NCBI GenBank assembly: GCA_964195565.1
Contig: CAXMRN010000063.1
Span: 47,701 to 111,700 of the forward strand
Source: an uncultured Polyangiaceae bacterium
GTDB lineage: Bacteria; Myxococcota_A; Polyangia; Polyangiales; Houyiibacteriaceae
DNA length: 64,000 nt
Direction of reading: 5' to 3'
Shown piece after piece: positions 4,285 through 56,886 of the stretch. The notes beneath the pieces were generated by a model. It was not told the DNA's origin, did no database searches, and was given only the letters and a program-made list of their open reading frames with translations. A program made the position numbers and the translations under genes. How positions within the stretch are numbered: the first letter of the stretch is position 1; every line of letters begins with the position of its first letter.

Positions 4285-5292
4285 TCACGGAGTTTTGCCG
4301 AGCGCTGCTACATACTCTCGGCTCAAGTGTTCGCAAAGGCTCAAAGGCGTCTCGCCGCTGTCGAGGTCTCGCTCGGCACGCGCTTGGAGCTGGGCTGCTC
4401 CCCCTAGGGTCGAAACGCCATGCTCGCCATGTTTGCGGCTGAAAAGGTCGACGGTCCACTGCACTTCGCCTCGTCGACGGTGGGCCGCGAGGGTCTGCGC
4501 GAGGTGCGAACGATGCTCGTCGAGTGCTTCGATCAGCTCGTCAATTCCGGTGCCGTGAGTCGCGCTGGTCGCGATGATCGGCGTGTCCCAGCTCGCGTCT
4601 TGCCCGCCGTCGGCTCCGACCGCGTGGGCGGTTTGAAGCGCGCCGCGTAGGTCGGCGACCGCGCGCTGCGCGAGGTCGTCGTGGTCGGCTTTGTTTACAA
4701 CCAATATATCTGGGATCTCCATGATGCCGGCCTTCAGGAACTGAAGGACGTCGCCGCTTCCAGGCTGAATCACCAACACGACCGTGTCCGCGACGTGGAT
4801 GATGTCGATCTCCGACTGGCCAACTCCGGTGGTCTCGATGACCACCATGTCGTAGGCGGCGGCGAGGACGCGTACCGCCGAGTTGGCGGCGTAGGCGAGG
4901 CCGCCCACCTCGCCAGCCGTGGCGAGCGAACGCACGAACAAGCCGTCGTCCGAGGGGTCGAAGCTCATCCGAGCGCGGTCGCCGAGCAACGAACCTCCGG
5001 AGCGAATGCTGGATGGATCGACCGCGACCACGCCGACGGTGCGGCTACGTTGGCGGACCGCGCGCGCGAGCGCGGAGGTCAGGGTGCTCTTTCCCACGCC
5101 AGGTGGGCCGGTGAGGCCGACGCGGTGGCCGCCCGCTGCTTTGGGTGCGTCCTTGAGTGCGGCCAGGAGTTCGGTCACGCCCGCCTGCGCTCCCGGACGC
5201 CGATCCTCGACGAGGTTCAACGCGCGGGAGACCGCCGCCTTGTCCGCCGACATCACGTTCGCGGCGTCTTCGCGGAGATCACTCGGCGGCAT
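4285..5292 (-). CDS. meaB: MeaB/ArgK-type G-protein chaperone of B12 mutases
   Basis: The P-loop GPPGVGKSTL and the VVNKADH motif are present. The gene overlaps the ecm stop by 14 nt. An alternative start (MSADK) lies at 5253. Confidence 0.85.
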   Translation of the reverse strand: MPPSDLREDAANVMSADKAAVSRALNLVEDRRPGAQAGVTELLAALKDAPKAAGGHRVGLTGPPGVGKSTLTSALARAVRQRSRTVGVVAVDPSSIRSGGSLLGDRARMSFDPSDDGLFVRSLATAGEVGGLAYAANSAVRVLAAAYDMVVIETTGVGQSEIDIIHVADTVVLVIQPGSGDVLQFLKAGIMEIPDILVVNKADHDDLAQRAVADLRGALQTAHAVGADGGQDASWDTPIIATSATHGTGIDELIEALDEHRSHLAQTLAAHRRRGEVQWTVDLFSRKHGEHGVSTLGGAAQLQARAERDLDSGETPLSLCEHLSREYVAALGKTP

Positions 5293-7285
5293 GCTGGCGG
5301 TCCACCAGGTCGATCAGGTCGCTCATGATGCTATCGAGCTCGTAGTCTTTGGGCGTGTAGACCGCCGCGACCCCTTCGCGGCGCAACCGCGCTGCATCCA
5401 CCTCAGGAATGATGCCCCCGGCAACTACTGGGACATCGCCAAGCCCTGCTGTCTGCAGCCGCTGCACGACTTCGGGCACCAACGCGAGGTGTGAGCCACT
5501 CAGAATACTGAGTCCGATCAGATGCACACCTTCTTCGAGCGCAGACGCGACGATTTGTTCCGGCGAGACACGAATGCCTTCGTACACCACGTCGAAACCC
5601 ACATCCCGCGCCTTGATCGCGATCTGTTCTGCGCCGTTGGAGTGCCCGTCGAGTCCGGGCTTTCCCACCAACAACTTCGCTCGCCGACCCATCCGCACTT
5701 CGAGCTCATCGAGCCGCTTGCGCAGCCGAGCGATAGTCTCCGCGGCAGGGCCGGACCCGGAGGTCTTCACCGTGGCGCCCGCGACCCCCGTCGGCGCGCG
5801 GTACTCGCCCCACACCTTGCGGAGCGTGTTGGCCCACTCGCCGGTCGTGACGCCCGCATGTGCAGCGGCGATCGAAGGAGCCATCATGTTCTGGTCGGTT
5901 CTCGCTACGCGTTCTAGCTCAGCCAGTGCTTTCTCGGCGGCGTCGTTGTCGCGTTCCGCTTTCCAGCGACCGAGCGCTGCACGTTGAGCCGCGTCAACCT
6001 CGGGATCGACCGTGAGGATAGCCTCATCGAGGTTTTCGGTGAGCGGCGAGGGGGCCCCCTCGACGTACTTGTTGACGCCGACGACCACCTGGTCGCCGTT
6101 CTCGATCGCTCGAATCCGTGCGGCATTGGATTCGACGAGCCTCTGCTTGATGTATCCGCTCTCCACGGCTTCGACGGCACCGCCCCGTTTCAAGACCTCT
6201 TGCACCTCGGCCCACGCGGAGTCGACGAGGCGCTGCGTTTCGGCCTCGACGACTTCGCTGCCTTTGAAAAGGTCCGCGTACTCGAGAAGGTCAGTCTCGT
6301 AGGCGAGGATCTGCTGCGCACGCAGCGACCACTGCTGGTCCCACGGGCGCGGCAGGCCGAGCGCCTCGTTCCAAGCCGGGAGCTGGATTGCCCGGGCCCG
6401 AGCGTCTTTGCTGAGTGTGACCGCCAGCATTTCGAGGACGATTCGAATTACGTTGTTCTCGGGCTGCTGCTCGGTGAGCCCGAGGGAGTTCACCTGCACG
6501 CCGTAGCGGAAGCGCCGATGCTTGGGGTCGGTTACGCCGTAGCGCTCCTGCGTGACGCGGTCCCAGAGTTCGACGAACGCGCGCATCTTGCACAGCTCTT
6601 CGACGAAGCGAATGCCGGCGTTCACGAAGAAGCTCATGCGTCCGACCACTTTACCGAACTCGGCTTCGGGCACGCGGCCGGTCGCCTTGACCGCATCGAG
6701 CACTCCGATCGCGGTGACCAAAGCGTACGCGAGCTCTTGGGTCGGCGTCGCGCCGGCTTCCTGCAAGTGATAGCTGCAGATGTTGATCGGGTTCCACTTG
6801 GGGACCTCATCGACGGTGTAGGTGATCAAATCGGTGATCAACCGCATCGACGGGGCGGGCGGGAAGATGTGGGTACCGCGGGACAGGTACTCCTTGATGA
6901 TGTCGTTTTGTGTGGTCCCACGGAGGACGCTGTGGTCGACTCCCTGGTCCTCGGCTGCGGCGACGTACAGCGACAGCAGCCAAACCGCGGTCGCGTTGAT
7001 CGTCATCGACGTGTTCATCTGGTCGAGAGGCAAACCGTCGAAGAGGGCGCGCATGTCACCGATGTGCGACACGGGAACCCCGACTTTGCCGACCTCGCCG
7101 CGGGCGAGCGGATCGTCCGGGTCGTATCCGGTCTGGGTCGGCAGATCGAACGCCACACTCAGGCCCGTTTGGCCTTTGGCCAGGTTGGTCCGATAGAGCT
7201 CGTTCGATGCGGCCGCGGTGCTGTGACCCGAGTAGGTCCGCATGATCCACGGTCTGTCGCGCTCCCGCTTGCCGTCCTCCGCCAT
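5279..7285 (-). CDS. ecm: Ethylmalonyl-CoA mutase (MeaA/Ecm-type fused B12 mutase)
   Basis: The N-terminus RPWIMRTYSGHSTAAASNELYRTNLAKGQTGLSVAFDLPTQTGYD is typical of MeaA/Ecm. The C-terminal B12-binding domain carries GLDGHSNG. I chose the ATG at 7285 (MAEDGK) because AGGAAGG lies upstream. The track instead starts at the TTG at 7306. Confidence 0.85.
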   Translation of the reverse strand: MAEDGKRERDRPWIMRTYSGHSTAAASNELYRTNLAKGQTGLSVAFDLPTQTGYDPDDPLARGEVGKVGVPVSHIGDMRALFDGLPLDQMNTSMTINATAVWLLSLYVAAAEDQGVDHSVLRGTTQNDIIKEYLSRGTHIFPPAPSMRLITDLITYTVDEVPKWNPINICSYHLQEAGATPTQELAYALVTAIGVLDAVKATGRVPEAEFGKVVGRMSFFVNAGIRFVEELCKMRAFVELWDRVTQERYGVTDPKHRRFRYGVQVNSLGLTEQQPENNVIRIVLEMLAVTLSKDARARAIQLPAWNEALGLPRPWDQQWSLRAQQILAYETDLLEYADLFKGSEVVEAETQRLVDSAWAEVQEVLKRGGAVEAVESGYIKQRLVESNAARIRAIENGDQVVVGVNKYVEGAPSPLTENLDEAILTVDPEVDAAQRAALGRWKAERDNDAAEKALAELERVARTDQNMMAPSIAAAHAGVTTGEWANTLRKVWGEYRAPTGVAGATVKTSGSGPAAETIARLRKRLDELEVRMGRRAKLLVGKPGLDGHSNGAEQIAIKARDVGFDVVYEGIRVSPEQIVASALEEGVHLIGLSILSGSHLALVPEVVQRLQTAGLGDVPVVAGGIIPEVDAARLRREGVAAVYTPKDYELDSIMSDLIDLVDRQHAAE

Positions 7286-21027: not shown

Positions 21028-21090
21028 GGGACACTCTCCGGGTCCTCAACCCTGCGGAATCAGGGCACTCCTGCGGCAAAGATCGCAGCG
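21028..21090 (+). repeat. Repeat unit copy A: GGGACACTCTCC-N33-GCGGCAAAGATCGCAGCG
   Basis: The unit starts 2 nt after the smc stop codon. By hand alignment, 55 of 63 positions match the reverse complement of 32568-32630. Confidence 0.7.
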
Positions 21091-21103
21091 TGCCCCGACG
21101 GGG

Positions 21104-31192: not shown

Positions 31193-32512
31193 GTGCTACG
31201 TTCGGCCGCCGTGAGCCATCGAGCACAAGACTCTGCGGCATCCAGCCCGCGTGCCCGTTGGGCGCTGACCGTCCTGCTGCTGGCCTACGTCCTTTCGTTC
31301 ATCGATCGCAACGTCATGGCGATCCTCGTTGGGCCTATTCGTAGGTCGTTCGATATCACGGACTTTCAGTACGGATTGCTGCACGGGCTAGCTTTCACCG
31401 TCTTCTACACGTTTCTGGGTCTCCCGATCGGCCGCCTTGCGGATAGCAAGAATCGCCGGGCGATCATCGGCGTGGGTGTGTTGTTCTGGTCGGTGATGAC
31501 TTGCGCGTGCGGCCTGGTGCGGAGCCTCGGCGGCCTGTTCGTTGCTCGCATGGGCGTCGGCCTCGGTGAGGCTGCGTTGTCCCCGCCGGCGCACTCGCTC
31601 TTGAGTGATCTCTTTCCAGCGAAGCTACTCCCGCGCGCCATGTCGATATTCACACTTGGAATCACCATCGGCGGTGGCATGGCATACATGATCGGCGGCT
31701 GGGTGTTGGGCGCCCTCGGCGACGCCGAACTATCTCTACCGATGCTCGGTTCGCTCGAACCCTGGCAGCTCACCTTCATCCTGGTGGGGCTGCCCGGTTT
31801 TGCGGTCGGCTCGCTGGTCTGGACGATTCGCGAGCCCAAGCGTCGCGGCCTTGCTCGCTCGGAAGGGGAGGGGGTGCCGGTTCGCGAGGTGATCGGCTAC
31901 TTCCGCACCCATGCGCGGCTTTACGGATCGATCCTAGGCAGTGTCTCGATGTTGTCAGTCCTCGGGTACGGTACGATCACTTGGTACGTCGAGATGCTGA
32001 TTCGCAACTACGGCGCCGAGGCAAGCGTAGTGGGTCCGAAGTTTGGTTGGATCTTCATCATTGCTGGGAGCGCGGGCGCGCTGAGCGGAGGGCTTTTGGC
32101 GGAGCGAATGGGCCGTCGATACGAAGACGCCAACCTGCGCGTCGTTGTCGTAGCGGCGTTGCTGTGGCTCGGACCCGGCATCCTCGGGCCGCTGATGCCC
32201 ACAGAACGAGGTGCGCTGCTCATGGCCGCCCCGATACTCTTCTTGATGAGTAGCTATTTCGGGCCGGCGATTGCGGCGTTGCAGACGTCGACGCCGAACG
32301 AGATGCGCGCACTGGCTTCGGCGCTTCTGCTGTTCGCGGCGAACCTATTCGGGCTGGGACTCGGACCCCCGTTGGTCGGGGCGTTGACCACCCACGTTCT
32401 CGGTGGCGACCAGACGCTGCACCTCGCGCTCGCCGGCCTCTCGGCGGTCTTCGCACCGTTGGCCGCGATCATGGGCGCTTGGGGATTACAGGGACACTCT
32501 CCACCCCCCTAA
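31193..32512 (+). CDS. MFS transporter
   Basis: The 439-aa product has 12-TM character and the MFS motif GRLADSKNRR. Its last codons lie inside repeat unit B-left. Confidence 0.8.
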   Translation: MLRSAAVSHRAQDSAASSPRARWALTVLLLAYVLSFIDRNVMAILVGPIRRSFDITDFQYGLLHGLAFTVFYTFLGLPIGRLADSKNRRAIIGVGVLFWSVMTCACGLVRSLGGLFVARMGVGLGEAALSPPAHSLLSDLFPAKLLPRAMSIFTLGITIGGGMAYMIGGWVLGALGDAELSLPMLGSLEPWQLTFILVGLPGFAVGSLVWTIREPKRRGLARSEGEGVPVREVIGYFRTHARLYGSILGSVSMLSVLGYGTITWYVEMLIRNYGAEASVVGPKFGWIFIIAGSAGALSGGLLAERMGRRYEDANLRVVVVAALLWLGPGILGPLMPTERGALLMAAPILFLMSSYFGPAIAALQTSTPNEMRALASALLLFAANLFGLGLGPPLVGALTTHVLGGDQTLHLALAGLSAVFAPLAAIMGAWGLQGHSPPP

Positions 32513-32631
32513 CCACTCGAATTGGCACCGCTTCTCCGGCAAAGATCGCAGCGTGCAATACCAGCGCCGCTGCGATCTTTGCCGCAGAAGTGGCGTGGTT
32601 TCGCGGGGTTGGGTACCCGGAGAGTGTCCCC
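32491..32631. repeat. Head-to-head dimer of the 63-nt repeat unit (B-left 32491-32553, B-right 32568-32630 inverted)
   Basis: The outer arms are GGGACACTCTCC and GGAGAGTGTCCC. The perfect 17-bp inner inverted repeat is CGGCAAAGATCGCAGCG / CGCTGCGATCTTTGCCG, separated by 14 nt. The dimer fills the MFS/dam convergent junction exactly. Confidence 0.75.
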
Positions 32632-33510
32632 TTAGTAGTTGCGGGCTATTATTTCGGTTACTTTGCCGCGTTTTTTTGGGTCGCAGTTGATGGCTCGGGG
32701 GGCGGCTACTGTGGCGATGTTGAAGTCTTTGTAGAGCTCTCGGGTGAAGGGGACGTCGCTGTTGGAGAGCATGAGCTTGCAGCCGCGGCGGTCGAGGGCT
32801 TTGTAGACGTCGCGTAGGCGGGTTTGGTCTTCTTGGGAGAAGCCGTCTCGGGCGTACGCGGTGAAGCTAGCGGTTTGGGAGACCGGCTCGTAGGGCGGAT
32901 CGAAGTAGACGAAGTCGCCGGGCTTCGCGTTCTCGAGCAGTGCGTCGAACGGCGCGCACCTCAGTTGGGCGTCTCGTAGTGCGAGGCTTGCCGCGCGCAG
33001 ACCGTCCTCGTTCAGAATCCGGGGATTCTTGTACGACCCGACCGGTACGTTGAACTCGCCTTTGCGGTTCACCCGGTGCAACCCGTTGAAGCAGGTCTTG
33101 TTGAGGTAGATGAACATCGCTGCACGCTTCGAGACGGAGACCCGCCGACCTTGGTTGTAGCGTTCGCGGACTTGATAGTAGCTTTCCTTCGAGTGGCGGC
33201 CGGCCAGTCCGCGCAGCGCCACGATCACTCGACCGACGTCGTCGCGGATCGCGGAGTAGGCTGCCACGAGAGTCGGATTGATGTCCGTCAGCAGCGCTCG
33301 CCCTGGGCGGCGCGAAAAAAAGAGCGCGCCGCCGCCGACGAATGGCTCGACGTGGCGCATGTGCTCTACCCCTGAAGGGAGCAGCGGTCGCAGTTGGCTG
33401 AGCAATCGGCCCTTTCCCCCCACCCACTTCACAAAGGGGGCTGCCTCCCGTGGCTGTTGCTCTAGCCTCACCGCGACCGCTGCAGATGTCGTCATGTGTA
33501 GTATGATCAC
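32632..33510 (-). CDS. dam: Dam-family (D12 class) N6-adenine DNA methyltransferase (orphan)
   Basis: Supporting motifs are FVKWVGGKGRLL and FVYFDPPY. An alternative ATG start lies at 33495. Confidence 0.85.
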   Translation of the reverse strand: MIILHMTTSAAVAVRLEQQPREAAPFVKWVGGKGRLLSQLRPLLPSGVEHMRHVEPFVGGGALFFSRRPGRALLTDINPTLVAAYSAIRDDVGRVIVALRGLAGRHSKESYYQVRERYNQGRRVSVSKRAAMFIYLNKTCFNGLHRVNRKGEFNVPVGSYKNPRILNEDGLRAASLALRDAQLRCAPFDALLENAKPGDFVYFDPPYEPVSQTASFTAYARDGFSQEDQTRLRDVYKALDRRGCKLMLSNSDVPFTRELYKDFNIATVAAPRAINCDPKKRGKVTEIIARNY

Positions 33511-56838: not shown

Positions 56839-56865
56839 CCAAAAAGGGGACAGTCCCCTTTTTGG
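56839..56865. terminator. Perfect palindromic hairpin CCAAAAAGGGGAC-A-GTCCCCTTTTTGG directly after the ftsQ stop
   Basis: The 13-nt arms were read directly from the sequence. The A and T tracts on either side give it a bidirectional intrinsic-terminator shape. Confidence 0.55.
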
Positions 56866-56886
56866 AAGGGTTAATTTCTAGCGAAC

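Follow-up and report, generated by a model that had tools for sequence, protein, structure and literature searches.

A probable REPIN-like repeat doublet at the junction of an MFS transporter gene and a dam methylase gene in an uncultured Polyangiaceae bacterium

What is the 140-nt palindrome that lies between a gene for a major facilitator superfamily (MFS) transporter and a dam methylase gene in an uncultured Polyangiaceae bacterium, and where did it come from? We analysed a 64,000-nt stretch of DNA around it (contig CAXMRN010000063.1, positions 47,701 to 111,700; hereafter the window) together with related loci from genomes and metagenomes. The structure is very probably a REPIN-like doublet, that is, a hairpin-forming pair of repetitive extragenic palindromic (REP) units, and belongs to a repeat family associated with a REP-associated tyrosine transposase (RAYT) in marine-sediment Myxococcota (Polyangiales-like).

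A repeat search of the window returned an inverted repeat with two arms of 63 nt each that are 76% complementary and lie 14 nt apart (Table 1). The outer ends of the doublet are the 12-mers GGGACACTCTCC (left) and GGAGAGTGTCCC (right), and its inner arms are the perfect 17-mers CGGCAAAGATCGCAGCG and CGCTGCGATCTTTGCCG; none of 100 shuffles matched the observed count of either motif. The left and right units are identical at 48/63 positions, and they match a third unit of the window, copy A, at 44/63 and 55/63 positions, respectively. An earlier note on this DNA, made from its letters alone, had described these coordinates, arms, spacer and identities to copy A, and the repeat, motif and identity checks agree with it to the base. 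It had also foreseen a long imperfect hairpin with a stable tip, and RNA folding bears this out. As + strand RNA the 140 nt form a single long hairpin of −95.0 kcal/mol (z −11.3), as − strand RNA they reach −93.1 kcal/mol (z −9.5) and as single-stranded DNA (ssDNA) −51.8 kcal/mol (z −9.9), with no shuffle as stable in any of the three. Two inverted REPs, a short spacer and a predicted ssDNA or RNA hairpin are the features by which a REP doublet is recognised, and the window doublet has all of them. The hairpin tip carries two Dam sites, GATC at 32544-32547 and 32574-32577.

The left unit extends into the transporter gene. The MFS open reading frame (ORF) ends with cag GGA CAC TCT CCA CCC CCC TAA (QGHSPPP and stop), the unit begins at the third base of the Q codon, and its first 22 nt are the last MFS codons and the TAA stop. 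This TAA belongs to the family consensus, in which column 20 is T or C and columns 21-22 are both A. At the other end, a single base (32631) separates the right arm from the dam stop (TTA on the + strand, 32632-32634), and the dam C-terminus, ...RNY and stop, is intact, outside the element and identical in all relatives compared. The earlier note's proposal that the element donates the MFS C-terminus and stop is upheld by the orthologues. MFS orthologues at 74-98% identity are abundant and most end ...GLKAYRLRL(V/A)xAxx; in place of this native end, ...KAYRLRLVGADV, the MFS of the window and that of its closest relative have ...QGHSPPP, which comes from the element. Judged by these C-termini, six element-encoded codons and the element's own TAA have replaced the native MFS tail. 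For annotation this is a warning that, in this clade, protein tails of the type ...GHSPPP derive from the repeat.

The closest relative, L240 (98% MFS identity), carries the doublet with 1 difference in 140 nt, and its MFS ends ...GLKAYRLQGHSPPP. At all other scanned relative loci the REP unit is absent from the junction. MFS and dam overlap at their stops by 7-13 nt in L244 and L245 and also on contig P0050, for which the overlap is read from the gene table only, with no DNA; one copy of a small hairpin, AAAAAGGGGACWGTCCCCTTTT, fills the junction in L246 and two copies fill it in L243. Because the relatives lack the unit and the dam tail is the same everywhere, we conclude that a recent ancestor in the window's lineage acquired the doublet, which removed the MFS tail after KAYRL. 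The boundary between MFS and element also differs between the two filled sites, with 15 nt (codons KAYRL) missing from the window (32486-32491, against 4296-4316 in L240). On this pairwise comparison the loss was a secondary in-frame deletion in the window's lineage, after the insertion. The comparison of empty with filled sites suggested in the earlier note gave empty junctions in relatives; a target duplication was looked for in the flanks of copies, and none was consistent. Read in this way, the junction is a clean, dated case in which an inserted repeat has rewritten a gene's 3' end: the old tail is lost, a new tail and stop are gained and a 15-nt deletion follows. As a separate observation, L241 has an arylsulfotransferase gene between MFS and dam (4310-5629), and the junction therefore also varies for reasons besides the repeat.

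Table 1. Window features discussed in the text (positions count from the first letter of the window)
Feature	Position	Strand	Basis
MFS transporter gene, native C-terminal tail replaced	31193..32512	+	Pfam MFS_1, E 4.6e-35; orthologues compared
Element-encoded MFS tail, GHSPPP and stop	32492..32512	+	sequence; orthologue C-termini differ
Left 63-nt REP-like unit, C-type at columns 13-16	32491..32553	+	full-length nhmmer family-profile match, 57.3 bits
14-nt spacer, the loop of the doublet	32554..32567	.	sequence and repeat search
Right 63-nt REP-like unit, G-type, inverted	32568..32630	-	full-length nhmmer match, 54.6 bits
Hairpin tip: perfect 17-bp inner arms, GATC in each, around the spacer	32537..32584	.	
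Dam-family N6-adenine DNA methyltransferase gene	32632..33510	-	Pfam MethyltransfD12, E 4e-63; TIGR00571 dam 294 bits, above cut-off
Copy A, singlet unit, G-type, between the SMC stop and the purL-like stop	21028..21090	+	nhmmer 52.1 bits

The claim that this is an inserted palindromic repeat element is supported, beyond the relatives whose junction lacks it, by a family of hundreds of copies. A scan of species-representative genomes with the 17-mer alone gave mostly chance matches, and 9 of the 119 matches listed were real family members. These nine loci belong to Sandaracinaceae, Polyangiaceae and Myxococcales metagenome-assembled genomes (MAGs), have GGGGACACTCTCC about 45 nt upstream of the 17-mer, and are nearly all head-to-head doublets with a variable centre. 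A metagenome scan with the pattern GGGACACNCNCC-N28-42-AAAGATCGCAGCG recovered at least 120 loci. The matches listed comprise 161 units, of which 154 have a length of exactly 63 nt and 146 are unique. A profile search (nhmmer) of the loci listed found at least 236 units, including 93 doublets (186 units) and 32 true singlets, so that ~85% of units there stand in head-to-head doublets; this sample was ascertained by pattern and is not an unbiased genome count. Doublet spacers vary between 4 and 97 nt; those of 12-15 nt form the most frequent class, which includes the 14 nt of the window. Units are found at well over 100 unrelated sites and in both orientations. There are three of them in the 64 kb of the window, where they differ pairwise at 8-19 of 63 positions, and one MAG has three separate loci (L024, L048, L094). 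The outer flanks have the consensus W-A-G, and in about one third of units the GGGGACAC end lies immediately next to a TAG or TAA stop.

The consensus of the unit is GGGACACTCTCC..AA..GAAATCAC..TTCT..AAAGATCGCAGCG, or in fuller form GGGACACTCTCC.cccccccAAccccccGaaAtcaca....TtCTc.ggcAAAGATCGCAGCG. The columns outside the search pattern (A21, A22, G29 and T42-T45) are 87-100% conserved, also in partner arms that do not match the pattern, and the internal blocks at columns 21-22, 29-36 and 42-45 are spaced about one helical turn. GATC at columns 54-57 is invariant in the recovered units and 92-100% conserved in arms that do not match the search pattern. This conserved GATC may matter for binding of the transposase or of another protein. 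A functional link between the repeat and the dam gene through GATC was considered and dropped; with the family at so many unrelated sites, the adjacency was judged a coincidence.

Columns 13-16 divide the family into two types, ACCC/CCCC (C-type) and GGGT/GGGG (G-type), and C/G doublets are the commonest combination (25/56). The window doublet is one of these, which gives the 5x5 internal loop in its predicted fold. The low match of the left unit to copy A had been ascribed in the earlier note to coding constraint or decay where it overlaps the MFS gene. This idea fails: the left unit has the highest family-profile score of the three in the window (57.3 versus 54.6 and 52.1 bits), and its ACCCCCCTAAC segment is a common family variant at non-coding sites elsewhere, for example in L062 and L067. 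On the sequences, the difference between left unit and copy A is that between a C-type and a G-type variant at columns 13-16. Columns 13-17 read ACCCC in some copies and the reverse complement, GGGGT, in others, and the switch occurs even where the flanks of orthologous sites are 93% identical (L204 5626 versus L178 4176), a pattern suggestive of a small inversion or of conversion with the opposite arm as template.

Singlets are also part of the family. They score 48.9 bits, against 48.1 bits for doublet arms, and are not clearly more decayed. A unit occupies the place orthologous to that of copy A in L225, an instance of singlets conserved at orthologous sites. L225 has ~300 bp extra, with an apparent small gene, between the unit and purL, and in the window a short G+C hairpin, GCCCCGACGGGGC, lies at 21091-21103, between copy A and the purL-like stop. 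Several singlets lie ~40-60 nt from a tRNA gene (sequence GGACGCGTAGCTCAGCTGGATAGAGCGCTCCCCTCCGGAG...), at ~100-165 in L153, ~150-275 in L198 and ~120-200 in L199.

This distribution bears on a local explanation, that the palindrome is a bidirectional terminator or structured regulatory RNA that evolved at the MFS/dam junction and is specific to it. A very stable hairpin does lie exactly between convergent genes, and relatives without the element have a small canonical terminator (A-tract, hairpin, T-tract) at the same spot. The 63-nt units recur at all those unrelated sites, however, and neither within units, where mutual information found no Watson-Crick covariation, nor between arms are there covarying base pairs. 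No U-tract follows the hairpin on either strand, where the next bases are UUAGUAGUU (+) and UGUAAUCCCC (−), and a scan for the intrinsic terminator consensus found nothing at the doublet hairpin. We consider a locally evolved structure barely credible. Searched against Rfam at gathering score, the whole window gave no match; sub-threshold matches were to eukaryotic miRNA precursor families only and were discounted, because any long hairpin resembles those families. An integron attC site, with YYYAAC/GTTRRR-like boxes, was likewise rejected, since copies lie between housekeeping genes and not in cassette arrays and the associated enzyme is a Y1 transposase, not an integrase.

The association with that transposase comes from relatives. 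An ORF of 217 aa lies between two inverted units in L231, L157 and L228; the units are ~750 bp apart and turn their inner ends towards each other. The product of this ORF matches Pfam Y1_Tnp (PF01797, IS200-like; E 1e-13, 51 bits against a cut-off of 23) and contains the HUH motif NHVHLLL and the motif YIDLNPVRA, and its sole NCBIfam match is NF047646, 'REP-associated tyrosine transposase' (REP_Tyr_transpos). Many homologues occur in MAGs of Polyangiales and Myxococcota, each on few contigs, and two of them bear the JGI label 'REP-associated tyrosine transposase'. Family units flank the homologue on both sides in L248 and L249, and on the one visible side in L247, L126 and L128, where the other side is masked or cut. 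The homologues of L247, L248 and L249, which go down to 55% amino-acid identity, all adjoin mglA, leuS or both (mglB-mglA-RAYT, RAYT-leuS and mglB-mglA-RAYT-leuS, respectively), and one of the three lies on chromosome CP070713, which also carries doublet L067. At each locus examined (L231 5890-9821, L157, L247, L248 and L249) the RAYT cassette directly adjoins one or both of mglA and leuS, and wherever both neighbours are visible it stands between these genes and is flush with their stop codons. The REP core flanking the RAYT is unchanged while the RAYT itself diverges to 55% identity. A transposase gene bracketed in this way by inverted repeats is the architecture that defines a REP-RAYT system, in which the doublets are the counterparts of REPINs (PMC3116915).

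These eight loci also weigh on a reading of the doublet as a miniature inverted-repeat transposable element (MITE), an internally deleted DDE-type insertion sequence with GGGGACACTCTCC as terminal inverted repeats that moves by cut-and-paste with target-site duplication. The size of ~140 bp, the terminal inverted repeats, the variable centre, the TA on both sides of some copies (e.g. L062 and L094) and the W-A-G flank consensus would all suit a MITE, but no gene other than that of a Y1/HUH transposase was found between units. Nor is there a consistent duplication, as the two flanks differ in the window, L003, L047 and L067, and singlets are common and conserved. We regard a MITE as very improbable.

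Several observations weigh against the assignment to a mobile REP-RAYT system. The transposase reaches 61.7 bits for NF047646, whose cut-off is 80, and phmmer found no significant match for it among PDB sequences (E up to 10), the weak match being one of the HUH motif to TnpA chains of ISDra2 (E 0.23). A tblastn search found no RAYT in the 64-kb window, and for this reason the RAYT link rests on relatives. The consensus is without the GTAG motif of Escherichia coli REPs, and single units fold no better than shuffles (z −1.6 to +1.9). At columns 18-50, identity is 0.538 between partner arms and 0.550 between arms paired at random (Mann-Whitney p 0.84); in view of this lack of arm-arm covariation, the long hairpin is a by-product of placing family members head to head, not something selected or co-inherited. 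Units of the same locus are 0.44 identical at variable columns and units of unrelated loci 0.43 (genome fragments), and the master-sequence population structure of Pseudomonas-type REPINs is therefore not seen. Few near-identical units stand in different contexts, so that recent mobility is barely documented. Lastly, an exact empty site that would mark the insertion boundaries and any target duplication was not found in a very close relative. Near-identical pairs do occur: L191 1665 differs at 2-3 of 63 positions from L154 13493, L156 2756 and L130 558, in two unrelated flanking contexts. Pairs of this type hint at recent movement or at recombination at the unit.

For the REPIN-like doublet that we favour, we infer both the mode of mobilisation and a role in termination from known systems. 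By analogy with IS200/IS605 transposases and with REP-RAYT systems (PMC3116915), the RAYT would mobilise the doublet as an ssDNA hairpin, and the conserved blocks would be the determinants of RAYT recognition and cleavage. Once in place, a hairpin of about −95 kcal/mol would form at the 3' end of both convergent transcripts and could act as a barrier to transcription or RNA decay, succeeding the small terminator hairpin of the relatives. REP doublets are described as co-opted terminators in other systems (PMC3337134). Functional replacement of the relatives' small terminator by the doublet is plausible.

A second, smaller repeat was seen in the same set of loci. It reads AAAAAGGGGACAGTCCCCTTTTT followed by nnAAGGGTTAR and resembles an intrinsic terminator for both directions, its GGGG/CCCC stem lying between an A-tract and a T-tract. 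In the window it lies right after a gene end (56840-56875); elsewhere it is found at L243 4286-4355, L246 3812-3845, L200 9293-9405 (3 copies), L145 3282 and L223 335. In two relatives it fills the MFS/dam junction instead of the REP doublet, and its GGGGACA start resembles the outer end of the REP unit.

Could the host, rather than the transposase, maintain the family? Host-level selection might keep the units mainly as a functional chromosomal site, perhaps a platform to which a protein binds on one face of the DNA, or an insulator or terminator that separates genes; mobility would then be largely historical, and the window doublet would persist as useful. In 203 orthologous unit pairs matched by flanks, divergence per site was 0.042 at conserved columns, 0.229 at variable columns and 0.135 in the flanking, mostly coding DNA, values to be read with outer blocks partly fixed by the search pattern and with some orthologous pairs that may be replacements (17 of 24 variable columns differ). 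The low divergence at conserved columns in orthologous copies implies that the blocks are held in place and the rest drifts. The conservation of A21, A22, G29 and T42-T45 even in non-ascertained arms, the fixed 63-nt length with its helical spacing of internal blocks, the lack of within-genome homogeneity and the constancy of the REP core beside a diverging RAYT point the same way. Turnover could nevertheless mimic such constraint, because copies that lose recognition blocks would no longer be copied and would be lost or go undetected. We hold host selection as the main force to be possible and rather unlikely. More tentative still, and doubtful in our view, is the proposal that the family is more than a selfish REPIN population and has become a domesticated, host-maintained DNA or RNA site, with five blocks in a rigid 63-nt frame, an invariant GATC, long-lasting purifying selection on the blocks, free drift of the positions between them and the RAYT at mglA-leuS as its keeper. 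If the units are host-maintained, the doublets would be genome-wide punctuation marks at gene ends, serving as terminators, insulators or a methylation-sensitive protein-binding platform.

How does a REP-RAYT family of Myxococcota compare with known systems? The Correia/NEMIS MITEs of Neisseria are likewise palindromes of ~100-150 bp with terminal inverted repeats that are gene-adjacent and capable of changing transcripts and the ends of genes. Correia elements carry TA duplications and are not known to be associated with a Y1 transposase; the Myxococcota family differs in having no consistent duplication. With IS200/IS605 elements and their miniature derivatives it shares a Y1 HUH transposase (PF01797) and a reliance on DNA hairpins. 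Those elements have subterminal hairpins, no terminal inverted repeats and multiple copies, whereas the Myxococcota gene lies between long inverted units and occupies one syntenic locus.

The REPs of E. coli are imperfect palindromes of ~35 nt with a 5' GTAG, and the Myxococcota unit is neither an imperfect palindrome nor GTAG-bearing. The E. coli system of REPs and bacterial interspersed mosaic elements (BIMEs) with TnpA-REP resembles it in having inverted REP pairs at gene 3' ends and between convergent genes. Effects of REPs and BIMEs on mRNA stability and termination in E. coli are known (review cited in PMC3337134), and they make the function proposed here plausible.

The family also resembles the REPIN-RAYT systems of Pseudomonas and Enterobacteria (PMC3116915, PMC5581495), which likewise consist of short extragenic repeats, mostly in inverted doublets capable of forming ssDNA or RNA hairpins. 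Both have a cognate Y1/HUH transposase gene flanked by the same repeats, and in both the transposase lies at one conserved chromosomal locus, consistent with vertical inheritance. The differences lie in the host, here Myxococcota, and in the unit, which is of a fixed 63 nt with five conserved blocks and is not itself palindromic. Compensatory arm changes have been reported for Pseudomonas REPINs (PMC3116915); here there are none, nor is there a within-genome master sequence, the singlets are not clearly more decayed and the RAYT falls below the NCBIfam cut-off. A survey published in 2017 connected no more than two RAYT groups with abundant repeats (PMC5581495). Our literature search, which covered the sequence strings as well as REPs and RAYTs of Myxococcota, found no relevant paper. 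To our knowledge, REP-RAYT systems have been studied almost only in Gammaproteobacteria. The element is thus of a known kind, REP-RAYT, in a phylum for which the literature searched holds no description. The family extends REP-RAYT to marine-sediment Myxococcota as a contrasting case, with long fixed units, block-wise conservation in orthologues and arms that do not co-evolve, and this contrast bears on the long-running question of whether such repeats are selfish replicators or host-beneficial elements.

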